From positions 3,796 to 67,795 of the forward strand of contig JAKQKX010000063.1 of the NCBI GenBank assembly GCA_029560465.1: DNA of 64,000 nucleotides, in the 5' to 3' direction. The notes beneath the pieces are model-generated. The model did no database searches, was not told the origin of the DNA, and saw nothing but the letters and a program-made list of their open reading frames with translations. Position numbers and translations under genes: made by a program. The DNA comes from Candidatus Omnitrophota bacterium (lineage in GTDB: Bacteria > Omnitrophota > Gorgyraeia > Zapsychrales > JANLHA01). Positions 19,459 through 48,579 of the stretch are shown piece after piece. Positions within the stretch are counted from its first letter, which is position 1. Each line of letters starts with the position of its first letter.

Positions 19459-20637
19459 ATGCACACGTTCGCGTATCAGAAAAATCAGCGTTATTTCGCG
19501 CAAATCGCGGATGGGCTGGAGGACTTGGGGAAGGAGGAGCTCGCCCGCCTCGGCGCGACAGACGTGAAGCCCTCCTACCGGGGGATTTATTTCTCGGCCG
19601 CCCCGGCCGCCCTGTACCGCGTCAATTACAGCGCCCGGCTCATCAGCCGGGTGATGGCCCCGTTGTTGACCTTTGATTGCCACAGCGACCGGTATTTATA
19701 TAAAACCGCGCGGTCCCTGCCCTGGACCGATTTGCTGACCCTTAAAACCACGTTCGCGGTGTTCACCAACGTGGCCAACAGCAATATCCGCCATTCGCAA
19801 TATGCCTCGCAGAAGCTGAAAGACGCGATCGTGGACCAGTTCCGGGACGCCTGCGGCGACCGGCCGCAAGTGGAACCGTTGTCCCCCGACGTCTGGATCA
19901 ACCTGTATATCCACAACAATAAAGCGACGATCAGTTTGGAGACGTCCGGCGGGTCTTTGCACCGCCGCGGCTACCGGCAGGAATCGGTGGAAGCGCCGAT
20001 GCAGGAAACGGTGGCGGCCGCGGTCATCCAGTTAAGCGGCTGGGACGGGGAACGGCCGCTGTACGACCCCATGTGCGGCTCCGGCACGTTGTTGACCGAA
20101 GCGCTCATGCGCGCCTGCCGGATCCCGTCCGGCTACCTGCGGGCGCGTTTCGGATTTGAGCGGCTGCCGGATTTTGACGCCGCGGTTTGGGGTAAAGTGA
20201 AACAGGAGTGCGACAAGCAAATCCGGCCCCTGCCGGCCGGGCTGATCGGCGGGAGCGACGTGTCCCGGGCCGCGGTTGAGGTGGCGCAAAAAAATTGCCG
20301 GATGCTGCCGGGCGGGGGGCAGATCACGATCAAGACGCGGCGTTTTCAGGATATCGAGGCCCTTGAGGACGCCGTGATTATCTGCAATCCGCCTTACGGC
20401 GTGCGCATGAACACCGCCCGGCAGGCGTCGACACTGCTCAAGGAATTCGACACCTTTTTGAAAAAGCGCTGCCAGGGGTCCACCGCCTACGTGTATCTCG
20501 GCAAAAAGGAGCTGCTGCCCCAGATCGCGCTTAGGCCAACCTGGAAAAAGCCGCTCAAGAACGGCGGCTTACAGGGTTTCCTGACAAAGTACGAGATCGC
20601 GGGGGAAAAGAAGGGGAAAGGAAGCGGACGCCATTGA
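19459..20637 (+). CDS. THUMP-domain class I SAM-dependent RNA methyltransferase (RlmL/COG0116-like)
   Basis: N-terminal THUMP-like region, DPMCGSGTLLTEA (motif I) and NPPYG (motif IV). Confidence 0.8.
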   Translation: MHTFAYQKNQRYFAQIADGLEDLGKEELARLGATDVKPSYRGIYFSAAPAALYRVNYSARLISRVMAPLLTFDCHSDRYLYKTARSLPWTDLLTLKTTFAVFTNVANSNIRHSQYASQKLKDAIVDQFRDACGDRPQVEPLSPDVWINLYIHNNKATISLETSGGSLHRRGYRQESVEAPMQETVAAAVIQLSGWDGERPLYDPMCGSGTLLTEALMRACRIPSGYLRARFGFERLPDFDAAVWGKVKQECDKQIRPLPAGLIGGSDVSRAAVEVAQKNCRMLPGGGQITIKTRRFQDIEALEDAVIICNPPYGVRMNTARQASTLLKEFDTFLKKRCQGSTAYVYLGKKELLPQIALRPTWKKPLKNGGLQGFLTKYEIAGEKKGKGSGRH

Positions 20638-20663
20638 AGCGGCCCTGTTTATCTGTGTTTAAT

Positions 20664-20866
20664 TTGGGGGACATGTACCTAATTCGCTTATGAATTAGGT
20701 GCGTGTCCCCGGAATTTACTGCTTATACGACGTTCCGGATAAGTGATATTACAGGGCAAATGGATACCATTTTATAAAAAACAGGGCTATAATAATGAAA
20801 AATCGGGGTAAAAATTGAATTATTCAAATGCCAAGAAACAACGCCAACCAGCAAATGGATAAGTCG
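20664..20866 (+). repeat. Copy 1 of a ~200-bp repeated intergenic element containing a 19-bp-stem hairpin (20667-20710)
   Basis: Near-identical to 27733-27972 (a few substitutions plus a 47-nt indel). Hairpin GGGGACATGTACCTAATTC-GCTTAT-GAATTAGGTGCGTGTCCCC. Lies between a GC-rich upstream gene and an AT-rich downstream cassette. Confidence 0.85.
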
Positions 20867-20905
20867 TTAAAGAAACGTTCGGCATGGAAACGCATATAAC
20901 ACAAA

Positions 20906-22054
20906 ATGACTATTGATCAAAAATATCAAATTGATTTTGTATTAGTAACTCACACCAAAGGTATCTTTTTTAATCCACATCGTCCTGAAGGTTTAGCGTT
21001 CACGCCTTCCACTAAAACAGGGTTGCGTTTCGTTCTCAAGCCATCAGACCCAAAAGGCGATGCGTGTGGTCATCGGGAGGGACTTGAATGCAGACTTTAT
21101 TCATCATATCCGGCAACGAAAGAACAGTTTGATTTTGTAGTTGCAATAAATAATCATAGGGTTATGCTTCGCGTTGCTGATGATATTTCTCTCCCATATA
21201 AACCGAAAGAAGAAATCCTTATAAATAAGGATGGTAAATACAAAGACGGTTTTTCTCCGCGTCGTTATTTGTGTCCATCTGATATTCAACAACTAATAAA
21301 AAATGTCGAGTCGGAACTAGCCTCTCAAACAAGTCAGTTTCTTAAACTGCTTCGATGGCGTCAAGGGATTGATGCTCCAGGCGAAGTTATAGAACACCGA
21401 TCACTTTACTGGAAAGTTGAAGCGGGGGATTGTCATTCAGTCCCTTTAGACGGTGGGTCGCACCATACGGTTGTAGTGCCGGAGATGTATGGCATACATT
21501 GGGATTCTGCTGATTCAGTAGATTTACAAAAGCTTTGGGCACAGGATGATATTGCAGAGCCCCTTGGGCATGCTTTAGTAAGAGAAGCAGCAGCTCTTGC
21601 TTCCGAGTCTCCAAGGAGTGCAATATTAATTATGACAGCAGCACTTGAAACAGCGGTTAAAATGCATATTAGCAACATTGCGCCTGATACGGATTGGCTA
21701 ATGGAGGAAATACCGTCACCACCAATTTTCAAGATGCTACGAGACTATATCCCTTTAATTCATGGTAGACGAGGCAGTGGGTTAGTCTGGTGGGTGAATG
21801 TGAACCCCTTTGTTAAGAAGGTGCAGAAACTTATTGAACTTCGTAACAAGGTCGCGCACACTGGGAAAATTCCTCAGGATGCTGCCCCCATTCATGAGAA
21901 CCTCGAATTAGTATCCGATCTGCTCTATTTGTTGGATGTGTTGGCTGGTCACGATTGGGCAAAGTCACTTGCAAGTCATAAATTTCGTGAAGCACTTGGT
22001 TGGCCCAACCCAACTCATGGCAGGACGACAAGCAAGATAACATGGGGACATTAG
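20906..22054 (+). CDS. AT-rich hypothetical protein with C-terminal HEPN-like domain (Rx4H motif; DUF4145/Apea-like)
   Basis: GC far below window average. C-terminus ...ALETAVKMHISN...VKKVQKLIELRNKVAHTGKIP contains the R-x4-H HEPN signature after a conserved helix; N-terminal ~250 aa unknown. Confidence 0.5.
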   Translation: MTIDQKYQIDFVLVTHTKGIFFNPHRPEGLAFTPSTKTGLRFVLKPSDPKGDACGHREGLECRLYSSYPATKEQFDFVVAINNHRVMLRVADDISLPYKPKEEILINKDGKYKDGFSPRRYLCPSDIQQLIKNVESELASQTSQFLKLLRWRQGIDAPGEVIEHRSLYWKVEAGDCHSVPLDGGSHHTVVVPEMYGIHWDSADSVDLQKLWAQDDIAEPLGHALVREAAALASESPRSAILIMTAALETAVKMHISNIAPDTDWLMEEIPSPPIFKMLRDYIPLIHGRRGSGLVWWVNVNPFVKKVQKLIELRNKVAHTGKIPQDAAPIHENLELVSDLLYLLDVLAGHDWAKSLASHKFREALGWPNPTHGRTTSKITWGH

Positions 22055-22275
22055 AACTAAACAAAGTGGGAATGCCGAACAAGCGCATTCACGCGGGCGC
22101 CGCTACGCGTCGCCGGTGATGCACAGGCGTTAGATGTAAAATAAGGAACAATAATGGACATAATTTCCCCATTAATAATAGTAGTTTTATTTTACAGAAT
22201 TAAATTAGGTGATGAGCGAAAATTCGGGATATTAGCTTTTGATATTCCTAAATAGTAAGCGTTCGGGGGTAATTA

Positions 22276-23268
22276 ATGATGGATAACGCAAAATTGATAT
22301 TTCAACAGTTCGCAAATGATGGTATTGACTATATTTATCAGAATATACTAAGTAAGTCATTAGAAGATACATGGGTTGAATGTAAAGGCAAAAGCGATCC
22401 CTCGCACCCAACACTAGACGAAAAGGATAAGTCAAATTTTGCAAAGAATTTGTCTGGTTTTGCTAATACAAGCGGTGGCGTTTTAATTTTTGGGTTAAAA
22501 GCAACAAAGAATTCAGAAGGATTTGACGTCGTTACAGGGGTACAGCCTATTAAAGACATAGATTCATTTGAAGCTGCTTTAAGAGAACAGGAACCTCGTA
22601 TAGTTGAAAGGGCAATATCAGGAATAGAATATAAAAGGATTTATACTGACAAAAATAAAAAAGAAGGCATTTTGCTTGTTTATGTCCCCGAGAGTACCAA
22701 TCCGCCTCATAGAAGTGTGAAAGACAAACATTTTTATCTGCGGGCTGGAGGGTCTTGTTATCCAATGGATTTGCCTCAGATTGAAAGTTTGGTACTTAAA
22801 AATATAAAACCAGAATTAGAAATAGATTTCTTTTTTCTTACGAATATGAATATATCAGATCCCCAGCAAGATTCAAGGGTGGATTTCATTATGGATTTTC
22901 AAATAAAAAATATCGGTAGAGCCATGGCCAAGAATATATTCGTAAGATTAGAGTTTCCTGGTGGGGGTATATATGAAATTTTCCCAGCTAAAAAAGGTGT
23001 CTATGATAAAGCCAACACGGAAACAAAAAGTGTCGTCTACGATTGGCATTATGATAAACCTATCCATCCTAATATATGCGTTCCAATAGAAGAGGCGACG
23101 CTTTTAGTATCTTGTAACTGCAGAATACCTCTTAGTTTTCCTCGATTCTTATTTGATGTTTCCATTTGTGCCGAGAACATGACATTGAAGTCAAAGAATT
23201 ACAATAAAAGCGGAGACGAAATGTTTAAGTTATTAATGGATCGAGGGGTAAGAAGAAAAATAACATGA
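22276..23268 (+). CDS. AlbA_2 / Schlafen-like (divergent AAA, putative DNA-binding) domain protein
   Basis: EDTWVECKGKSD...LSGFANTSGGVLIFGLK matches the AlbA_2 core (E..E.K....AFANT.GG.L..G). AT-rich. Confidence 0.6.
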   Translation: MMDNAKLIFQQFANDGIDYIYQNILSKSLEDTWVECKGKSDPSHPTLDEKDKSNFAKNLSGFANTSGGVLIFGLKATKNSEGFDVVTGVQPIKDIDSFEAALREQEPRIVERAISGIEYKRIYTDKNKKEGILLVYVPESTNPPHRSVKDKHFYLRAGGSCYPMDLPQIESLVLKNIKPELEIDFFFLTNMNISDPQQDSRVDFIMDFQIKNIGRAMAKNIFVRLEFPGGGIYEIFPAKKGVYDKANTETKSVVYDWHYDKPIHPNICVPIEEATLLVSCNCRIPLSFPRFLFDVSICAENMTLKSKNYNKSGDEMFKLLMDRGVRRKIT

Positions 23269-23283
23269 TGAGTCCTAGTCGAG

Positions 23284-23361
23284 TTATCACATCCTCGGCA
23301 TTAACGCCGTGATGTTTTTTGTCATCGTTGCCGCTGCGCTTTATGGCAAGTCAACCGCGCT
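23284..23361 (+). pseudogene. 78-bp fragment of the cation-diffusion-facilitator gene (identical to 30234-30311)
   Basis: Perfect nucleotide identity over 78 bp to the internal part of the CDF gene at 30132-30773 (encodes LGINAVMFFVIVAAALYGKSTALLA); flanks differ on both sides. Confidence 0.85.
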
Positions 23362-23463
23362 GCTGGCTCTTTGGGGTGTCCATAACAACCGCATGAACCG
23401 GATCGTGTCCCTGTTGGGCCACTCCGGGTTATGCGCGGCGTTCGACGAAGAAAGGAGGACGCA

Positions 23464-24090
23464 ATGAAATTCAACTGCATAAACTGCGGACAGAGCTTGG
23501 AGGCTGATTCAGACATGGCCGGGACTTCGGTGACATGCCCGGTTTGTTCCAAAGACATAAAAGTGCCGGGCCCGAAGGACCAGCCGATCCGAGTCCGACG
23601 AACGACCCCACCGCCAGTTCCTCAACAGCCTTTTTCAGAGACATCCCCGCTCAACACGGGATTACAGCCCAGAAGCTTCTTCGGCACCGCGTCTATGATC
23701 TTTGGGGTCACGTCCCCTCTGTTTGCGCTTGGGTTCGACTTCCTGATGTCCCTGCAAACGGGTGTACCTTTCGGGAGAATGCTGACCATATCCATACCGA
23801 CGGGATTTATGTTCGGGCTCCTTTTCGGGCTGATCATGGCCGCATTCCTGAAAGCAGACACCATCACTGTCAACATCCGGGATAGAGATGACTTTGTCTC
23901 TCGAATCAATGTGGCCATGTCTCAGATCGGTTTCTATCCGGAAACGGGATCAGGCAACTTCCTGATCTTTAAACCTTCCTTTTGGGCCGGATTGATGTCC
24001 GGACGGTTTTCAATAGTAATTCAAGGCAGCAAAGCGACAATCGTAGGCCCGAGTAAGTATCTGAAGAATATCCAGAAGAGGTTCGTATAG
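23464..24090 (+). CDS. Zinc-ribbon (CxxC...CxxC) membrane protein, hypothetical
   Basis: MKFNCINCGQ...VTCPVCSK, then a Pro-rich linker and 2-3 TM helices; strong RBS GAAAGGAGG; GC like the host core genome. Confidence 0.55.
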   Translation: MKFNCINCGQSLEADSDMAGTSVTCPVCSKDIKVPGPKDQPIRVRRTTPPPVPQQPFSETSPLNTGLQPRSFFGTASMIFGVTSPLFALGFDFLMSLQTGVPFGRMLTISIPTGFMFGLLFGLIMAAFLKADTITVNIRDRDDFVSRINVAMSQIGFYPETGSGNFLIFKPSFWAGLMSGRFSIVIQGSKATIVGPSKYLKNIQKRFV

Positions 24091-24202
24091 GTAGTGCCGA
24101 ACAAGCCGGATGCATGCGACGGCTTGCAGCCGCGCGTGATGCGCAGGTGTTATTTTAGTTGATTTCATTGCAATTACTTATCATATATGTTAAGATTATG
24201 GC

Positions 24203-24841
24203 ATGGAATTTGAAGAGTTTGTGTATAAAGTACAAGATTTGCCGGTTATCATTACAGAATATTTTTCTGCCGGGCAGAAGGATAGTCTGCCGATGGAGGT
24301 CCAGTTAAGTCGTTGGAAAAAGTCCGGTAAAATTATTCAACTCAAGCGGGGGGTATATCTTTTAGCAGAACCTTACCGAAAACGGCAAGTTTACGAATTT
24401 TATCTTGCAGGCCTTCTCCAACAGCCTTCCTATATCAGTTTGGAAAAAGCTTTTGAATTTCATAATCTTATCCCTGAAGCCGTAAATAGCTTTACCAGCG
24501 TTACTCCTAAAAGACACGCATGTTATGAGACCCCTGTTGGTCGTTTTGATTATCGGCACATTCGAGAGTCATTATTTTGGGGATATCAATCCGTAACCCT
24601 TTATGGCCAGACGGCGTTTATGGCTTTGCCTGAAAAGGCGCTTTTGGATTTTTTTTATCTTTCCCCGCATGAGCCGGATGAAGATTATTTGAAGGAGATG
24701 CGTCTGCAAAATTTAGATTTAATTGAACCTGAAAAAATGGAGTATTTTTCGCGTAGATTTGGAAAGCCGAAGTTGCGGCGCACCGCCGAGGCGATGATCA
24801 AACTGTGTGAAAAAGAAAGACAGGAAGAAAAAACGTTATGA
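24203..24841 (+). CDS. abiEi: AbiEi-family antitoxin / transcriptional regulator (type IV TA, abortive infection)
   Basis: About 210 aa with an N-terminal winged-HTH-like region; 4-bp ATGA overlap with the downstream AbiEii nucleotidyltransferase gene. Confidence 0.65.
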   Translation: MEFEEFVYKVQDLPVIITEYFSAGQKDSLPMEVQLSRWKKSGKIIQLKRGVYLLAEPYRKRQVYEFYLAGLLQQPSYISLEKAFEFHNLIPEAVNSFTSVTPKRHACYETPVGRFDYRHIRESLFWGYQSVTLYGQTAFMALPEKALLDFFYLSPHEPDEDYLKEMRLQNLDLIEPEKMEYFSRRFGKPKLRRTAEAMIKLCEKERQEEKTL

Positions 24842-25659
24842 AAGATTATTGTTTAGAACTGGCGGCTGCTAAAAGTGGGTATGACGCTAAACTCAACACG
24901 ATGCGGGAATATTTACAGGCGTATATTCTGCGAATTATGCAACAACAGCATATTTTTAGAACGACAGCTTTTATGGGTGGTACGGCCTTAAGGTTCATAT
25001 ATAAATTACCCCGTTTTTCTGAAGACCTGGACTTTTCTCTGGTTGATCAACCGGATTGGAAGTTTGCCGATTTGATTGCCAATATTAAAAAACAATTTAT
25101 GGATGCTGGATATAATATTCATGTCAAATACAAGGATCAGAAAACAGTGCAACATGCTTTCTTCCATTTTGATCAACTTTTGTATGATGCGGACCTGTCA
25201 CCTATACGAGATCAAAAATTCAGCATCAAATTGGAGGTTGATACCAATCCACCGCTGGGTGCGGGAGTAGAAACAAAGGTTTCCAATATCTATTTCCCGG
25301 TCAGTTTCTTGACGTACGATCTGCCATCTTTGTTTGCCGGAAAGCTTCACGCTTTGTTGAGCCGCGGGTTTACCAAGGGCCGTGATTTTTATGATTTGGC
25401 CTGGTATCTTTCCCGCTTTGATGGTGGGATTAAACCAAATTTCAACATGCTTAATCATGCGCTTGTGCAGTCCCATTGGCAGGGGGCGGAGTTAAATGAA
25501 AAAAACGGGTGGTCTGAATTAACAAAAATCGTCAAGGCGGCTGACTGGAAAAAGGTCAGAGAGGATGTTGAGAAATTCCTTGAAAATCCCAAGGATATGG
25601 ATGTTTACACGCAAGAGACTGTGTTGGGATTAGTGGCGAGTTGGGATAAAGAAGAATAA
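24838..25659 (+). CDS. abiEii: AbiEii/AbiGii-family nucleotidyltransferase toxin (DUF1814)
   Basis: FMGGTALRFIYKLPRFSEDLDF matches the GGTAL...R.SxDxDF nucleotidyltransferase motif of AbiEii. Confidence 0.8.
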   Translation: MKDYCLELAAAKSGYDAKLNTMREYLQAYILRIMQQQHIFRTTAFMGGTALRFIYKLPRFSEDLDFSLVDQPDWKFADLIANIKKQFMDAGYNIHVKYKDQKTVQHAFFHFDQLLYDADLSPIRDQKFSIKLEVDTNPPLGAGVETKVSNIYFPVSFLTYDLPSLFAGKLHALLSRGFTKGRDFYDLAWYLSRFDGGIKPNFNMLNHALVQSHWQGAELNEKNGWSELTKIVKAADWKKVREDVEKFLENPKDMDVYTQETVLGLVASWDKEE

Positions 25660-25771
25660 TCAGCGCCTGGCTCCCGGGGACGAAAAATCATATGGCCGCC
25701 CCGCCCCTCCGACCGTAAGAATGAAAAATGGGCCGGTAACCGATATTTCCAAACGAAAGGCTGGATAACCT

Positions 25772-26314
25772 ATGAACATGGCATCACGGCTTCTTCTTTT
25801 AACCGTATTCGTTAGCGTGTGTTCCGGATGTTGTGTCGCGTATGTTGTCACCGTGCCTGCCGCCGTAGTCAGCGCTGCTTTTATGAAAAAACATAAAGTC
25901 CATACTTCACAAGAGGTCCGCACGAAAGATGGCGCGCACGTTTATTTCTTGCAGCTGTCGGTCCCCCTGACAACGCTTCAAAAGGCCGACGGGCCGGAAC
26001 TGCTTTTTTTCTCGGTCATTGCGCGATCGCAATTTAATCCTGCAAAACCATGCGTATATCGGATATTTGCGCAAAAGATCCGGGATGGGAAAGAAGTCGG
26101 CGGCCCCGCCGTGGTCCTGGAATGGCGAATCAAGCATCCCCATGAGCCCCGTTGGGATATACAGGAGTTGTTTTTTGATCCCGTCAGAATGATTTCAGAT
26201 AAAAGGATAAGGGATACCGGAATCATCTATCGCGTTCGGGGCAAGAAAGCGGAGCGGGAACAATTTCTGGCTGTTCTTGAGAAAGACATTCTGGGCCGGA
26301 TTACCCAGGAATAA
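25772..26314 (+). CDS. Hypothetical lipoprotein/secreted protein
   Basis: Signal peptide with Cys-rich end LLLLTVFVSVCSGCC. Confidence 0.45.
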   Translation: MNMASRLLLLTVFVSVCSGCCVAYVVTVPAAVVSAAFMKKHKVHTSQEVRTKDGAHVYFLQLSVPLTTLQKADGPELLFFSVIARSQFNPAKPCVYRIFAQKIRDGKEVGGPAVVLEWRIKHPHEPRWDIQELFFDPVRMISDKRIRDTGIIYRVRGKKAEREQFLAVLEKDILGRITQE

Positions 26315-26352
26315 TGAGGGGGATTCTGACGGTATTATAAAGAAGGAGAATC

Positions 26353-26592
26353 ATGGATAAACAGATTTTTATATCTTTAGCGTGTATCATCGCGGGATTA
26401 TTCAGCTCAATTTGCGCCGGGATGGATTTTGATTTTTTTATGAATCACAGAAAAGCCCGATTCTTTGTGAAAATATTGGGCAGAAACGGCGCTCGGATTC
26501 TTTATGTTTTACTCGGCATCGCCATGATTATTGTTGGCGTTGGTTTTTTTACCGGGATCATCCCCTTGCAAGGGGAGCCTGTTTTTCAGTGA
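26353..26592 (+). CDS. Small membrane protein (2 TM), hypothetical
   Basis: ORF track; two hydrophobic helices; RBS AAGGAG. Confidence 0.35.
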   Translation: MDKQIFISLACIIAGLFSSICAGMDFDFFMNHRKARFFVKILGRNGARILYVLLGIAMIIVGVGFFTGIIPLQGEPVFQ

Positions 26593-26687
26593 TAAATAAT
26601 TTTGATAACGCCCGGCCTGATTGCCCGCTTTAAAACGGGGGGACAACTGCCGGGTGAACTCATGCGTCCGGCCGGGAGGATAAAACC

Positions 26688-27491
26688 ATGGCAAAAGCAT
26701 ACGTTCACGGATACGATCCGCGGGAGAACATTCGCTTACAGGATCAGGCCACCACCTTGGTTGACCTGCTGCATTCGGACACGGCCTATCCGGCGGGAAG
26801 CCGCGTCCTGGAAGCCGGCTGCGGAGTCGGCGCGCAAACGGTGACCTTGGCGAGAAACAGCCCCGGGGCGTCCATCGTGTCCATTGATATCGCGGAGGAA
26901 TCGCTCGCGCAGGCGGAGCGGATTGTCCGGGCGGCAGGGATGCCCAACGTCCGGTTCCAGCAGGCGGACATCTACCACTTACCCTTTGCCCCGCAATCAT
27001 TTGACCACGTCTTTGTTTGTTTTGTGCTGGAGCACTTGAGAGAGCCGGGCGCTGCCTTGCGGAAGCTGAAAGAGTGCCTGCGGCCGGGCGGAACCATCAC
27101 CGTCATTGAAGGCGACCACGGCTCTGCCTGCTTTCATCCCGACAGCGATGCGGCGCGCGCCGCGATTCACAGCCAGGTCGAATTGCAGTCTCGCGCGGGC
27201 GGCAACGCGCTCATGGGAAGGGCGCTGTATCCGTTGCTGGTTACAGCGGGCTATCGTGATGTCCGGGTGTCCCCCCGGATGGTATATGTTGATTCCAGCA
27301 AGCCGGAACTGGTCGACGGATTCACGAAGAAGACATTTACGGCGATGATCGAGGGTGTGCGTCAATCGGCGATCGAGGAGGGCGTCATCGAGCCCGCGCT
27401 GTTCGACCAGGGAATCAAGGACCTGTACCGAACGGCCGAGCCCGACGGCACATTCTGCTACACCTTTTTCAAAGCCCTGGGAAAAGCATGA
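26688..27491 (+). CDS. Class I SAM-dependent methyltransferase
   Basis: VLEAGCGVGAQTV motif I, acidic motif II ISIDIAEE, FDHVFVCFVLEHL; RBS GGGAGGA. Confidence 0.75.
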   Translation: MAKAYVHGYDPRENIRLQDQATTLVDLLHSDTAYPAGSRVLEAGCGVGAQTVTLARNSPGASIVSIDIAEESLAQAERIVRAAGMPNVRFQQADIYHLPFAPQSFDHVFVCFVLEHLREPGAALRKLKECLRPGGTITVIEGDHGSACFHPDSDAARAAIHSQVELQSRAGGNALMGRALYPLLVTAGYRDVRVSPRMVYVDSSKPELVDGFTKKTFTAMIEGVRQSAIEEGVIEPALFDQGIKDLYRTAEPDGTFCYTFFKALGKA

Positions 27492-27520
27492 ACGCCGAAC
27501 CATGAAAGGAGATTCTTAAC

Positions 27521-27733
27521 ATGCAGGTATTGGGGGTTTTGCTGTTGATCGCTGGTTTGGTCTTTGGAGCCGTTGGTATCTGGAGGAAAAAGAATCCTGG
27601 AGGCCCTGTCTTCTTTGGTCATGTAACGGACAGCATCCGGGACCTCTATGGTGTTAAAACGCCTGGCCATTGGCCGATCATCGTGGGGGCAATTTTGTTC
27701 CTGGCCGGCCTTGTCCTCGTGCTGCTGAAGTAG
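27521..27733 (+). CDS. Small 2-TM membrane protein
   Basis: Two TM helices; RBS AAAGGAG. Confidence 0.45.
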   Translation: MQVLGVLLLIAGLVFGAVGIWRKKNPGGPVFFGHVTDSIRDLYGVKTPGHWPIIVGAILFLAGLVLVLLK

Positions 27734-27972
27734 GCCGGGTTTTGGGGACAGATGACTTAATTCGCTTATGAATTAGGTGCGTATCCCCGGAATTTTGGAA
27801 TTTGCCCGGAATTTCTGTGTTAAAGTGGAAACCCTGATTATCCGACGTTCCGGATAAGTGATATTACAGGGCAAATGGATACCATTTTATAAAAAACAGG
27901 GCTATAATAATGAAAAATCGGGGTAAAAATTGAATTATTCAAATGCCAAGAAACACCGCCAACCAGCAAATG
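27733..27972 (+). repeat. Copy 2 of the repeated intergenic element with hairpin (27735-27779)
   Basis: See copy 1. Carries an extra 47 nt with three reiterations of CCGGAATTT; again directly 5' of an AT-rich cassette. Confidence 0.85.
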
Positions 27973-28011
27973 GATAAGTCGTATAATAATTGTTCGCTAT
28001 AAGGGATATAG

Positions 28012-28605
28012 ATGACAGAGCAAGAAAAGAGGAATATTGAAGAATCAATTGATAACGTAAAAAACGCCTTCCAGAGAGCGCCAAACGTCCTTCTTACTGA
28101 GGAAGATCTTCGTGTGCACCTTTGCCATAGACTTATCAATCATTTCGGTACGGAAAATAGGACAAACGATGGCGACATATCAATATCATTACATACGGAA
28201 ATACGCTGGTACGGGAATGGAAATCTAAAGACTCGATCTGATATTGTGCTTGTTGACGTTTCAAGTCTTGACGTTAGTAAGCATTTTAAACTGCCTAGCA
28301 AAGGTTATGGATTCAACATTCCTAAGGCTATTATTGAATTGAAATTCCGCCGTCCGAACGGAGAAGCTACATCCCAATTTCTTAAGAAGATACGTCAAGA
28401 TATCATAAAGCTTCAAGAACTCATCCGAGTTTTTGAGACTGTTCAAGGACAAAACACGGTTGCGTTCTGGATGGTCGTATTTGACAAGAAGCACAATATT
28501 CAGTGTAATATTGACGAACTAAAAATTCCACCCGGTGTGAATGTTACATATTGTTTTGCAGAAAGTAGCGAACAAACGCCTGCACCGGACGCTGTGCGCC
28601 GGTGA
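28012..28605 (+). CDS. AT-rich hypothetical protein with PD-(D/E)xK nuclease-like motif arrangement
   Basis: Helix with E (EEDLRVHLCHRLINHF), beta-strand ending in D (RSDIVLVD), then AIIELKF (ExK); spacing typical of restriction-endonuclease-like fold; GC roughly 35%. Confidence 0.5.
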   Translation: MTEQEKRNIEESIDNVKNAFQRAPNVLLTEEDLRVHLCHRLINHFGTENRTNDGDISISLHTEIRWYGNGNLKTRSDIVLVDVSSLDVSKHFKLPSKGYGFNIPKAIIELKFRRPNGEATSQFLKKIRQDIIKLQELIRVFETVQGQNTVAFWMVVFDKKHNIQCNIDELKIPPGVNVTYCFAESSEQTPAPDAVRR

Positions 28606-28639
28606 GGTGCCGCGTTAGATTTATAGAAAAGGGGGTTTT

Positions 28640-29017
28640 ATGACTCAGCTAATAATTGGTTATTTAATATCTACAGTTGTTGGAGCATTTATCATGAAGT
28701 TTGTTATGGAGAAAAAAGTATGGGGAAAATGGCTGCAAGATAAAGAAGAAAAAAATGAAGATAAGAAAAAAAATATAAAAAAAATATCAATGCTAGTGGG
28801 CATTCTTGAACGTGTTTTATATACTACCGCAATAATAATGGGCCAATATTCTTTTATTGCTATATGGTTAGGTATTAAAGTTGCACCAAAATGGGGCAAG
28901 TGGCATGAGGAAGAAAATCGTGGTATCTTTAATGCATTTTTGATAGGCAATGCGTTATCTATTATCATAGCCTTCGTGGGAGCATGGGTTATTAAACCAA
29001 GTATTCTTAAAATATAA
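28640..29017 (+). CDS. Small 4-TM membrane protein with K/E-rich cytoplasmic loop
   Basis: Four hydrophobic helices; loop KEEKNEDKKKNIKK; RBS AAAGGGGG; very AT-rich. Confidence 0.5.
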   Translation: MTQLIIGYLISTVVGAFIMKFVMEKKVWGKWLQDKEEKNEDKKKNIKKISMLVGILERVLYTTAIIMGQYSFIAIWLGIKVAPKWGKWHEEENRGIFNAFLIGNALSIIIAFVGAWVIKPSILKI

Positions 29018-29193
29018 TCAGGAAATCTAACACCTATAAGGCCCCGGAAGTCGAGATAAAGAGTTTGCCCGACGAAGATTTTTAAAGATTTTTGAAATTT
29101 ATAAAGAAGAGTTGTTCATTGGATTTGTGTAAAAATGTCTATCTGTGGATTGGGCGGCAATCCGGTTGTCGGTATATTGAGGAGGTTGCGTTC

Positions 29194-29907
29194 ATGGTTC
29201 TACGAGAATGTCCGTCTGAGGAAGAGTGGAACGAGATTTTTGGCAATTCTCTATTCCCGGATATCCTAAAATTTGTAGATAGTTTAAAACGTTCTGGTAA
29301 GACTTATGAAGATGGCTTTGAATTTATACGGGGAATAGAAACGCGTGAATATTACTTTCAACTTCGCCACAGAATAGCAGATACAGCAATAAGTTATGTG
29401 TTTGTAGTGTACTTCTATAATAAGGGTATACCTGATAAACGTTGGTCTGTTTCTCCCGGCAGGGACGGATGTTCTGTGGAATACTTCCCAGATTTTGAAA
29501 ATATACATTATGAAATAAAGAAATGGTTCGACTACTATTCTGACGTTTTCTACTATAAGTTATTTTCGGCCCTAGACATCGTTGGTCATATCTTAAACAA
29601 CACTCAAAATCTTAAGATCAAAAAAAGTAAAGTTTCGTTTTCCAGAAGCCTCAGAAAACTTGAGGGCATCAATGATGAATTATTTGAAACCATTAATTCC
29701 ATCAATCAAAATCAGGATTTTAAGACGGCCCAAGAAATTAGAAATGATATAACACATAATTACTTGCCAAGCTCAGTGGGGGTTTCTGTAACTATTGATG
29801 AAAAGCAAGGAATCGTTGGAGAAAGAGCTTACATTACCTCCTGTGATATCATTAACAATATTAACTCAATGCTTAAATTGTTTAAGCAAATTTTAGACGC
29901 TATATGA
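29194..29907 (+). CDS. Abi-like protein with C-terminal HEPN motif (Rx4H)
   Basis: TAQEIRNDITHNYLPS carries R-x4-H; start chosen at ATG 29194 preceded by GAGGAGG (track lists a TTG at 29092); AT-rich. Confidence 0.5.
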   Translation: MVLRECPSEEEWNEIFGNSLFPDILKFVDSLKRSGKTYEDGFEFIRGIETREYYFQLRHRIADTAISYVFVVYFYNKGIPDKRWSVSPGRDGCSVEYFPDFENIHYEIKKWFDYYSDVFYYKLFSALDIVGHILNNTQNLKIKKSKVSFSRSLRKLEGINDELFETINSINQNQDFKTAQEIRNDITHNYLPSSVGVSVTIDEKQGIVGERAYITSCDIINNINSMLKLFKQILDAI

Positions 29908-30131
29908 AAAATAGCCCAACAAAAAATGCAGCGGATGCGTAGTCAGGCCCCTGATTTTGGGCGTTGTGTGAAAAAAAACAGGGGAAACTTGTCCACACAA
30001 ATAATCCAACCCTGCCATCTGTTATGGGGCAATACATCACCCCTTTCTTTGTACAGGATAAAAATGGCTAAAAATATTCCACTAACGATTCAATTGAGCG
30101 GATCGGCCTTGCGGCCTCCCGCTTATTTTGG

Positions 30132-30773
30132 ATGTTAGATCGCTATAAGGATTGCGCTATGAGTGGTTGTTGTGACAAGGATTGTTCTTTAGAACGCCTG
30201 CGGGAACGGCAGCGCGGAACGTTGCAAATTGTCCTCGGCATTAACGCCGTGATGTTTTTTGTCATCGTTGCCGCTGCGCTTTATGGCAAGTCAACCGCGC
30301 TGCTGGCTGACAGTCTTGATAATCTTGGAGACGCATTGACATACGGCCTTAGCCTCTACGCGGTTTCGAGGGGCACTGCCGTTAAGGCCAAAGTCGCCCT
30401 GTTTAAGGGCGGGCTTATTTTCCTGGCGGCTGTTACCGTGGCCGCTCAAATTATTTACAAGTTTTTTGTCCCAGGTCTGCCCATTTTCGAGGTTATGGGC
30501 GCGTTCAGTCTTCTTGGCCTTGCCGCAAACTCCCTTTGTCTTTTTCTGCTGTGGCGACATCGCCACGAAGATGTGAATATGAGTTCCGTGTGGGAGTGCT
30601 CGCGAAACGACATCGCATCCAATCTTTCGGTTTTCGTGGCGGCCGGCGCGGTCTGGTTCACCGGTTCAGGCTGGCCTGATATTGTGGTTGCCGTGGGTCT
30701 CGTGTGGCTTTTAATGCGTTCCGCTCTTCGCGTTATTTCTTCAGCGATGGTAGAGCTTCGTACGGCAGCCTGA
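30132..30773 (+). CDS. Cation diffusion facilitator (CzcD-like) transporter, short form (213 aa, TM domain only)
   Basis: Cys-rich N-terminus CAMSGCCDKDC, TM helices with DSLDNLGDALTYGLSLYA (CDF signature-like). The cytoplasmic C-terminal domain found in most CDFs is absent. Confidence 0.7.
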   Translation: MLDRYKDCAMSGCCDKDCSLERLRERQRGTLQIVLGINAVMFFVIVAAALYGKSTALLADSLDNLGDALTYGLSLYAVSRGTAVKAKVALFKGGLIFLAAVTVAAQIIYKFFVPGLPIFEVMGAFSLLGLAANSLCLFLLWRHRHEDVNMSSVWECSRNDIASNLSVFVAAGAVWFTGSGWPDIVVAVGLVWLLMRSALRVISSAMVELRTAA

Positions 30774-30920
30774 CAATTCGCTCAACACGGACGGGTCAAA
30801 GCACCGCAGGAGTAAAACAACAACCGCTTCGCGGACAACCGCAGGACAAGGCTGTTGAGCAACAGTTCGAGGATGAATAAAGAATATGTCTAGGGACCTG
30901 CTCCCCGGGAAAGACTGCGA

Positions 30921-30985
30921 TTGCAGGATCAGGCGGCCACTCTGGTTGACTTGTTGCGTTCCGGCCATGGGGCGCTTCCGGCTGT
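30921..30985 (+). pseudogene. Diverged remnant of a paralogous methyltransferase N-terminus (homologous to 26733-26795)
   Basis: About 72% nucleotide identity over ~58 nt; encodes RLQDQAATLVDLLRS versus RLQDQATTLVDLLHS in the intact MTase; reading frame diverges afterwards. Confidence 0.35.
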
Positions 30986-47875: not shown

Positions 47876-47985
47876 CGAGTGTTTTTTATGGTGGCGAGAG
47901 ACTGTTATGCTGCCCCTTAAGCCGGGTTGTGTGTCGGGATGGGAGATTAAAAAATAACTTGTCGTTGAGGAAAAATAAAATTAAG

Positions 47986-48069
47986 TGCTGGAGGAGGGAG
48001 TTGAACCCTCATGAGGTTGCCCTCACTGGTTTTTGAGACCAGCGCGTATGCCAATTCCGCCACTCCAGC
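47986..48069 (-). tRNA. tRNA-Leu (anticodon CAA)
   Basis: Manual fold: acceptor GCTGGAG/CTCCAGC, anticodon stem CTGGT/ACCAG with loop CTCAAAA, long variable arm TGAGG-GCAA-CCTCA, T-arm GAGGG-TTCAACT-CCCTC; no CCA encoded. Confidence 0.8.
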
Positions 48070-48087
48070 AGAGAATCGGAGAAATCC

Positions 48088-48438
48088 TTACGGCCAAATA
48101 TGGAAAATTTTCTTGATATCTTTTTGGCGCAGATAATAAATGACAAACCCGTGATAGAGGATGGATATCCCATTTTTTATCGGGGACGGCACCGTGGTTT
48201 CCATCGCGCCGTTAAGATGAATGATGCCCAGAAAAATTAGGAGTTTGCTTAAGAGCACCACGGAGGCGAAGTAAAGCAACGCCCGGTAAGCCAGTTTTTT
48301 GAACCGGAGAATCCCGACGCCAATGGAAAACGATGTTAACGCGGCCGTAATGACAAAGAACAGGACATTGTTTGGCTTGGCGTTGGAGCCCAGCAACACG
48401 GCCCACCCCGTCCCCAGGAGTGTCCCCCCGCCAATCAT
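48088..48438 (-). CDS. Small membrane protein between the two tRNA genes (hypothetical)
   Basis: ORF track 154-aa ORF trimmed to the internal Met so that it does not overlap tRNA-Ala; 3-4 TM helices. Confidence 0.35.
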   Translation of the reverse strand: MIGGGTLLGTGWAVLLGSNAKPNNVLFFVITAALTSFSIGVGILRFKKLAYRALLYFASVVLLSKLLIFLGIIHLNGAMETTVPSPIKNGISILYHGFVIYYLRQKDIKKIFHIWP

Positions 48439-48503
48439 GATTTCAATGATACCGATAAATAAAATAACCCGAAAGCTTTTCAATTTTCGGAATTCGCGCG
48501 AAA

Positions 48504-48579
<76 letters not shown>

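Follow-up and report, generated by a model that had tools for sequence, protein, structure and literature searches.

Integrons are defined by an integrase gene that is physically coupled to one attI site, and arrays without this gene, known as CALINs (attC-site clusters in which an integron integrase is missing), are common and usually treated as debris or passive cassette stores. In the attC site of a cassette, the R'' (RYYYAAC) and R' (GTTRRRY) boxes flank an imperfect L''/L' hairpin just 3' of the open reading frame (ORF), and the 5' end (TTNNNN) of a circular cassette joined at G|TT complements the R'' box (NNNNAAC) of its own attC. Sites of the attI type have been described inside arrays as attI-flanked or delta-attI-type cassettes of mobile integrons, where the site is attI1 or attI2 and the integrons are class 1 and class 2 elements of clinical origin (PMC12901181), and sedentary chromosomal integrons have been reported to store anti-phage defence cassettes (Darracq et al, bioRxiv 10.1101/2024.07.02.601686). 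Here, we report on a 64-kb stretch (hereafter, the window) of a 76-kb contig of a Candidatus Omnitrophota bacterium (JAKQKX010000063.1), which carries a direct repeat consisting of a hairpin and a module of ~165 nt, referred to as A. It is likely that A is an attI-like docking site that heads an integron-type array, is detached from the integrase gene intI, and has been duplicated in tandem and also placed at another locus.

The locus is arranged in the order of rlmL, A1 (copy 1 of A), cassettes, AbiE/Imm17/methyltransferase genes, A2 (copy 2), further cassettes and a cation-efflux (CDF) gene, with a GC content of ~60% in the surroundings and 34-45% in the cargo. The sequence at 20664-20881 matches that at 27741-27996 as a direct repeat with a start-to-start distance of 7115 nt; two platforms in tandem would therefore appear as an element bracketing 7 kb. 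The parts of the two copies are as follows.

20661..20716, + strand: hairpin 1, with a 19-bp stem (20667-20685 / 20692-20710), loop GCTTAT and flanks AATTT..GGAATT
20719..20877, + strand: A copy 1, the probable attI-like platform (alignment of 10 copies, nhmmer profile matches)
20723-20742, + strand: inverted repeat TTATACG-N6-CGGATAA (copy 1)
20758-20772, + strand: palindrome AAATGG-ATA-CCATTT (copy 1)
20788-20793, + strand: TATAAT box (copy 1)
20848-20877, + strand: conserved crossover-proximal block (copy 1)
20877|20878, + strand: putative crossover G|TT of A1
27741..27814, + strand: hairpin 2, with a degraded stem, and GGAATTT reiterations, also at the same place in the close strain L136
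27815..27992, + strand: A copy 2, whose left segment CTGTGTTAAAGTGGAAAC is absent from copy 1 (alignment, nhmmer profile)
27903-27908, + strand: TATAAT box (copy 2)
27992|27993, + strand: putative crossover G|TT of A2

A near-identical direct repeat at the two places had been pointed out in the initial annotation, and it was borne out by a repeat search, BLASTN and pairwise alignment. The 3' parts (20719-20881 and 27834-27996; 163 nt) were 95% identical with a single mismatch up to 20873 in the repeat search, and the hairpin parts (20664-20717 and 27741-27795) were 89% identical by BLASTN, with 95% identity in the inner stretch (20677-20717 and 27755-27795; repeat search). The 25-nt hairpin core and a 35-nt module pattern each occurred exactly twice in the window, for an expectation of 0 from shuffles. 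The indel between the copies, given earlier as 47 nt of GGAATTT reiterations, is a 37-nt insertion in copy 2 by pairwise alignment, and only its first half consists of such reiterations; the second half, CTGTGTTAAAGTGGAAAC, is, as judged from the aligned copies, ancestral module sequence that was kept in other copies and lost from copy 1. Of the long hairpins assigned to both copies, that of copy 1 folds strongly as + strand RNA (-39.4 kcal/mol, z = -9.5, with two G-U pairs in the stem), and that of copy 2 is degraded, with an internal loop and a z of -2.9. The element was also described as starting right after the stop codon of a GC-rich gene, which held approximately, copy 1 starting 26 nt past rlmL and copy 2 starting 8 nt past a 70-aa ORF, and as ending ~40 bp before the start codons, for which its functional right end (G 20877 and G 27992) gave 29 and 20 nt.

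Further copies of A were present in related loci, which are designated here by L-numbers and comprise metagenome contigs and metagenome-assembled genomes (MAGs) named Candidatus Omnitrophota. One metagenome scan with the pattern AATGGATACCATT-N15-CTATAAT yielded six contigs with 82-88% identical copies, and the total came to 10 copies (nine full and one 3' half) in at least six contexts, each with different AT-rich cargo whose proteins were mutually non-homologous between copies. These were the two in the window, two in L135/L136, and one each in L108 (=L137, also L139), L143, L109 (=L102) and L104 (=L105), together with L103a and L103b. L108 is syntenic to the window, with rlmL, A and then differing DNA, and the species of L108/L137 has A with a single cassette, whereas L143, a third lineage with ~91% identity, has rlmL, a hairpin, A and six other cassettes. 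In L109 and L104, A lies behind the 3' end of an unrelated gene, and in L103 a full copy is followed ~900 nt downstream, behind an attC, by a copy of the 3' 78 nt only (L103b). The rlmL orthologues with 83-99% amino acid identity were followed by A in L135-L140 and L143, and the more distant relatives L141 (rlmL 81% identical in amino acids) and L142 had rlmL without A and without an array. At least eight metagenome samples, taken from digesters, sludge and elsewhere, yielded contigs with identical rlmL, CDF, DeoC or hydrolase proteins. In exact-protein look-ups, including one with a 118-aa ORF, the contigs compared had the cargo of the window and 99-100% identity to it, and the rest had the same gene order; these contigs were therefore uninformative, and variation appeared only via homologues and cluster members. 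A scan of a species-representative genome collection with the rlmL protein gave 58% identity for the best relative and no close genome.

Alignment of the copies revealed a near-invariant 5' block of 80 nt, comprising the dyad TTATCCG-N6-CGGATAA, the palindrome AAATGG-ATA-CCATTT and TATAAT, followed by a variable stretch of ~40 nt and a conserved 3' block ending in CCAGCAAATGGATAAGTCGTTAAAGAATTG, with no similarity after the following TT. All copies terminate in AAAGAATTG|TT or close variants, and nothing past GTT is alike. We also observed that the heptamer GTTAAAG, found at the left edge of A in several copies (window 27815-27833; L136, L137 and L103), recurs 8 nt before the crossover in most copies (cf. 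window 27977-27992), A2 of the window having the left one only; this repetition could be a trace of an attI x attI-type duplication.

We then asked whether the AT-rich units behind G|TT have the anatomy of cassettes. In a genome as GC-rich as this one, generic AAC...GTT hairpin scans gave too much noise, and a chaining test and a position weight matrix (PWM) were used in their place. In the former, for which an attC (GTCTAAC..hairpin..GTTAGAC) between two genes of L103 provided the lead, the R'' box was predicted from the six bases after the terminal G of A and then sought downstream. As a result, the 5' hexamer of the first cassette matched its own R'' exactly at seven of the 10 junctions and with one mismatch at the other three (L103a, L105 and the second copy of L136), a chance match of the four free bases being 1/256 per junction. 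The exact pairs were TTCGGC/GCCGAAC (22074) for A1 and TTCGCT/AGCGAAC (28567) for A2 in the window, TTAAAT/ATTTAAC in L108, TTAGCG/CGCTAAC in L109, TTCTGT/ACAGAAC in L103b, TTATCT/AGATAAC for the first copy of L136 and TTGGAG/CTCCAAC in L143, and the matching R'' boxes were located a few nucleotides past the stop of the first ORF. Downstream cassettes chained likewise, with exact matches for five of six in L143 and four of six in L136. Folding gave bulged hairpins for the attC sites, with strong duplexes between the arms (-16 to -26 kcal/mol), and attC features were found at five sites in the window (22074, 23380, 24096, 28567 and 30080) and at least 15 more in the related loci. A two-half PWM, trained only on sites of other loci, scored four window sites (22074, 23380, 28567 and 30080) at 29.1-37.9, compared with a maximum of 24.2 in the 20 shuffles that served as background; these four top sites are all on the + strand and all within 22.0-30.2 kb. 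Taken together, the R'' matches at the junctions and the PWM sites indicate that the AT-rich units, which the initial annotation had not recognised as such, are integron gene cassettes in the strict sense that are joined at the G|TT of A. The units of the two variable heads are listed below.

20878..22129, + strand: cassette 1a, 5' end TTCGGC; 382-aa ORF (20906-22054) with a weak HEPN match (Pfam)
22074-22135, + strand: attC of cassette 1a; R'' GCCGAAC, R' G|TTAGAT; duplex -21.8 kcal/mol; PWM 29.1
22130..23291, + strand: cassette 1b, truncated, 5' end TTAGAT; 330-aa Schlafen/AlbA_2 ORF (22276-23268; Pfam SLFN_AlbA_2); its expected R'', ATCTAAC, was not found downstream
23292..23368, + strand: 77-nt CDF gene fragment, 100% identical to 30232-30308
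23380..23446, + strand: attC; R'' CCATAAC, R' G|TTCGAC; PWM 30.7; hairpin fold
23441..24149, + strand: zinc-ribbon membrane protein cassette (ORF 23464-24090), the last unit differing from strain L136
24096-24155, + strand: attC of the zinc-ribbon cassette; R'' GCCGAAC, R' G|TTATTT
27993..28614, + strand: cassette 2a, 5' end TTCGCT; 197-aa ORF (28012-28605)
28567-28620, + strand: attC of cassette 2a; R'' AGCGAAC, R' G|TTAGAT; duplex -26.5 kcal/mol; PWM 37.9
28615..30134, + strand: further cassettes of the second variable head, with internal attC boundaries resolved in part
28640-29017, + strand: 125-aa ORF; R'' ATCTAAC at 29025-29031 matches the 5' TTAGAT
29194-29907, + strand: HEPN_Cthe2314 ORF, with a weak attC candidate at 29913-29969; a 70-aa ORF also lies in this head
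30080-30140, + strand: attC; R'' CACTAAC, R' G|TTAGAT, with the G at 30134

To this anatomy, a comparison with a close strain adds that the cassettes differ behind both copies. The strain L135/L136 (MAG GCA_030153525.1 and a JGI contig) was found by its 99% rlmL variant (P0001), and its backbone is identical to that of the window at 98.7% up to 20874, 97.5% over 24163-27994 and 97.7% from 30134. Homology stops at 20874 and 27994 and resumes at ~24163 and 30134, with unrelated cassettes between: in the first interval, L136 has a 143-aa ORF and HEPN_AbiU2, compared with the 382-aa, Schlafen, CDF-fragment and zinc-ribbon units of the window, and in the second, it has four small ORFs, compared with the 197-aa, 125-aa, HEPN_Cthe2314 and 70-aa units. 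On the left, the intervals are bounded by the G|TT of A1 and A2, and on the right by the G|TT in the R' box of an attC site, at 24149 and at 30134. An att-like, cassette-associated signature 5' of swappable cargo, as suggested in the initial annotation, is thus supported by the fixed G|TT, the R''-matching cassettes and the strain differences behind both copies. Variable cargo behind the element in relatives, proposed there as a test, was found for the 10 copies, and the contrary outcome of only two copies with identical cargo can be set aside because variable cargo does follow the element. The cargo is rich in HEPN, Abi and Schlafen-type genes, and the backbone around it contains the following features.

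19459..20637, + strand: RlmL/THUMP-type RNA methyltransferase gene (Pfam UPF0020, THUMP, RlmL_1st), the core gene before the first platform
24150..27733, + strand: strain-conserved segment (Pfam, PADLOC), 97.5% identical to L136 12689-16515
24203-24841, + strand: AbiEi
24838-25659, + strand: AbiEii, followed by a 180-aa ORF
26353-26592, + strand: Imm17
26688-27491, + strand: GC-rich SAM methyltransferase
27521-27733, + strand: 70-aa membrane ORF
30135..30773, + strand: CDF unit starting with TTAGAT (Pfam Cation_efflux); homology to L136 resumes at 30134
30873..30962, + strand: 5' remnant of a methyltransferase gene, ~71% identical in nucleotides and 70% in amino acids to 26688-26777 (~30 codons)

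Based on these findings, we propose that circular attC-bearing cassettes would join A between G and TT at its 3' end via site-specific recombination, by an integron-type integrase that is presumably encoded elsewhere in the genome. Such joining would place the newest cassettes directly behind A and in the same orientation, and the cassettes would probably be transcribed from the TATAAT region of A. Whole array heads may also be exchanged by homologous recombination, with the invariant 5' block of A and the next conserved cassette as arms. More speculatively, A2 might have arrived with an unusual cassette that ended in an attI-type site, consisting of the methyltransferase gene, the 70-aa ORF, the hairpin and A2. 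As for class membership, the junction anatomy, in which ten first cassettes, all different, begin at a single fixed G|TT, is what would be expected of an attI site. By IntegronFinder's categories, the locus would be classed as a CALIN (Cury et al, 2016, PMC4889954), a class that calls for at least two attC sites on one strand and no intI nearby; here the + strand has at least five attC sites, and no integrase was found along the 76 kb.

With respect to transcription, the copies share an invariant TATAAT at a distance of 85 nt from the downstream crossover, and the cassettes all run in its orientation; A probably carries an outward promoter reading into the cassettes, and the shared promoter or leader that had been suggested as one option is possible for the 5' block. 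L109 and L104 have the dyad as ATATACG..CGTATAA, a symmetric compensatory change compared with the TTATCCG..CGGATAA of most copies. Candidate sites for protein binding are the two dyads upstream of TATAAT and the GGATAAGT / GCAAATGGATA motifs, which are repeated. Several other functions of A were considered and rejected. No Rfam family matched A at gathering or permissive thresholds, the Rfam matches in the window being only two distant tRNAs (tRNA-Leu(CAA) and tRNA-Ala(GGC), 47985-48579, - strand), which are unrelated to the repeat. The consensus fold of A was weak (-15 to -18 kcal/mol) with no support from the covariation term, and its sole compensatory pair falls in the DNA-type dyad; a known structured RNA was accordingly rejected. 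The same Rfam result, as well as the presence of A at the head of arrays without a CDF gene, argues against a riboswitch or leader of the CDF gene. Small-ORF readings (e.g., MPRNNANQQMDKS...) were discarded for want of a ribosome-binding site and of a frame conserved among the copies, and a by-eye search for a LexA box gave merely a one-mismatch resemblance to the TTAC-N3-GTAA type box. Pattern scans of IMG/VR gave 0 matches for the hairpin core and nine for the dual GCAAATGGATA motif, all of them unrelated tandem or coding repeats.

Several points weigh against A as an attI-like docking site. Recombination at A was inferred from junction anatomy and not observed, the attC calls came from ad hoc scripts and not from IntegronFinder's covariance model, and at several places in the window an attC is either lacking or degenerate, namely behind the Schlafen gene, behind AbiE and around 29025-29170. 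A is not known to resemble attI1 in sequence, and it has no obvious inverted L/R core boxes of the attI1 kind. The promoter scan found no sigma-70-type -35/-10 pair on the + strand because TATAAT has no matching -35, and, in line with the Rfam result, the element had no BLASTN match in plasmid and phage collections. Neither a tyrosine recombinase nor a transposase was found by Pfam scans of 40 window ORFs, in agreement with the initial annotation as to the lack of an integrase gene, or among precomputed Pfam matches across the 76-kb contig, and no integrase lies beside any other copy of A; the locus is thus not a complete integron, because intI adjacent to attI, the gene of a tyrosine recombinase with the IntI-specific insertion, is absent from the window, the contig and the other neighbourhoods of A. 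Furthermore, whole blocks of two to four cassettes were replaced between the strains rather than single cassettes added, and the 3' half of A2 differs at ~13 per 100 nt compared with ~2.5% in the flanks, being ~5 times more diverged. These last two findings fit homologous replacement better than fresh integrase activity, and homologous recombination clearly acts on top of the site-specific recombination proposed here.

An extension of the docking-site interpretation, which is possible and which we put forward only tentatively, is that A is a portable, integrase-less attI-type platform copied to new chromosomal sites, where the copies would seed arrays served in trans by one integrase, with the hairpin as an attC-derived stem that moves the platform. 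Copies following rlmL, lying within an array already in place and following one or more further genes would then represent several active heads that the genome runs from one enzyme. Two pairs of near-identical short elements (95-97% identity) were also observed behind different ORFs across lineages, one being an attC site (L143 8648-8728 and L136 16932-17012) and the other lying at L109 3453-3490 and L108 13767-13804. In L109 (1109-1293), what precedes A is only the terminal 164 nt of a gene, which L104 (reverse strand) has in intact form, and upstream of that lies an Rce1-like gene, which in L143 stands just after the rlmL-linked array (L143 11252-12121 and L109 218-1090), so that L109 may represent a second head in a further arrangement of the tandem kind.

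It is unlikely, in our estimation, that A is a conserved intergenic or promoter segment that is no substrate of a recombinase and whose cargo is swapped purely by homologous recombination, e.g., after natural transformation. Cassette shuffling driven by transformation has been described for chromosomal integrons (PMC12614218), and three features of the present loci are consistent with such a process: multi-cassette blocks were swapped whole between the window and L136, the divergence of the 3' half of A2 suggests breakpoints in the invariant 5' block, and the hairpin pattern is out of step with strain relatedness. However, it leaves unexplained why ten different first cassettes start at the same G|TT and why their 5' hexamers are complementary to their own R'' boxes, which is the footprint of recombination between attC and a site. 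Homologous exchange probably supplements site-specific recombination rather than taking its place.

Even less probable is that A is a favoured secondary (attG-type) target of an integrase and hence an accidental hotspot rather than a dedicated platform. Integrases do insert cassettes at many genomic sites (bioRxiv 10.1101/2022.09.11.507474), and no intI is located beside any copy of A, but A is a 165-nt module with two near-invariant blocks that are kept across lineages whose flanks are 77-91% identical. It is also duplicated at several loci, always heading arrays in the same orientation, and the relatives without A have no cassettes at rlmL.

We regard it as very improbable that the hairpin and A form a small non-autonomous mobile element, such as a miniature inverted-repeat transposable element (MITE) or a repetitive extragenic palindrome, that stands before foreign genes by chance. 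The multiple copies of A at more than one locus would suit such an element, as would the hairpin, which is independently present or absent at the same site in 98.7%-identical strains (window 20661-20716; L136 11200-11225). For the module, however, the MITE-like label of the initial annotation is not supported: no terminal inverted repeats or target-site duplications surround A, no transposase is present, only two copies occur in 64 kb with none elsewhere in the loci searched, and the copies travel with pieces of flanking genes, that of L109 having been copied with the 164-nt gene end mentioned above, which points to segmental rearrangement. The label may fit the hairpin loosely, its presence being independent of the module. 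At A1, the hairpin is absent from L136 and L137, which have the ancestral left edge ..TGTTAAAGNGGAA.. instead; the window and L136 alike have it at A2, and it also occurs at L103a and ahead of A in L143. This distribution does not track strain relatedness. At the distal end of the array in L143 (11150-11215), a loop-flipped hairpin directly follows an R'' (TCCTAAC) that matches the 5' TTAGGA of the last cassette, and in the PWM scan, the flank of the window hairpin on the minus strand resembled an R''-L'' half-site. The hairpin may be an attC-type stem or a small, possibly mobile, palindromic insert, and its G-U pairs on the + strand would also suit a terminator that insulates A from upstream transcription.

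A recent local tandem duplication without functional meaning can practically be dismissed: the colinear homologies of A, the 77-nt CDF fragment and the methyltransferase 5' remnant do link the two units, but their ages are far apart (about 99-100%, 89% and 71% identity), unrelated cargo lies between them, the cargo behind both copies varies between strains, and the same module heads arrays in other contigs.

A few observations concern the neighbouring units. The 77-nt CDF fragment sits between the truncated Schlafen cassette and the attC at 23380-23446, and its position and sequence point to the remains of a former second CDF unit that has mostly been deleted. The methyltransferase remnant is much older than the other shared pieces, and the two units therefore have a mosaic history. 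The annotated CDF ORF has a first ATG that overlaps with the R' box of an attC (ATG|TTAGAT; 30132-30140), and the real start is therefore probably ATG 30159; other assemblies call a 204-aa CDF product. In both strains, AbiEi/AbiEii (24203-25659) form the conserved core between the variable heads, which fits the reported array-stabilising role of toxin-antitoxin cassettes.

This locus lacks an integrase and yet retains a conserved, multi-copy insertion module, directly behind which the cassettes change in strains ~1% apart. If the integrase acts in trans, loci of the CALIN type could be live acquisition platforms, several per genome would be possible, and sites of the attI type could spread independently of intI. 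The findings also extend integron-borne defence cassettes (HEPN, AbiE and Schlafen-like) to uncultivated Candidatus Omnitrophota of anaerobic digesters, and A provides a concrete sequence for finding such platforms and the small genes behind them. Our literature search gave no description of a conserved attI-like head of ~165 nt that stands apart from intI, occurs both as a tandem duplicate and at a further locus, and has strain-variable cassettes behind it.

Compared with the known systems, A shares with attI and its promoter Pc (e.g., attI1 of class 1 integrons) the position of a double-stranded site at the head of the array, joining at G|TT with the newest cassettes adjoining, repeated motifs that could bind an integrase and cassettes co-oriented in such a way that an upstream promoter could read them. 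It differs from such platforms in that no intI is present within 76 kb, in its greater length of ~165 nt and in that a genome has several copies, two of which stand in tandem within one array. CALINs have been described as attC clusters without a defined head, whereas each cluster of the present locus has a conserved attI-like module at its head, and the cassettes change exactly behind this head in close strains. As with the delta-attI-type cassettes, A2 and the 3' half in L103b lie downstream of other cassettes, giving an attI-cassette-attI order, but those cases have their own integrase, whereas A is unrelated in sequence, chromosomal, found in Candidatus Omnitrophota and without a linked integrase. 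The locus resembles sedentary integrons in its defence-type proteins (HEPN, AbiE, Schlafen/AlbA_2 and Imm17) and in the toxin-antitoxin cassette of its stable core, and differs from them in having ~4-6 cassettes per head, two heads and no linked integrase. Like the attG sites (Loot et al, bioRxiv 10.1101/2022.09.11.507474), A would receive cassettes outside an intI-linked attI, but attG sites are numerous and far from classical att sites in sequence and structure, whereas A is a long and conserved module that has been duplicated and used repeatedly. Both the cassettes and the attC sites are ordinary, already known parts of integrons, and the conserved, multi-copy attI-like head is the unusual feature of this locus.

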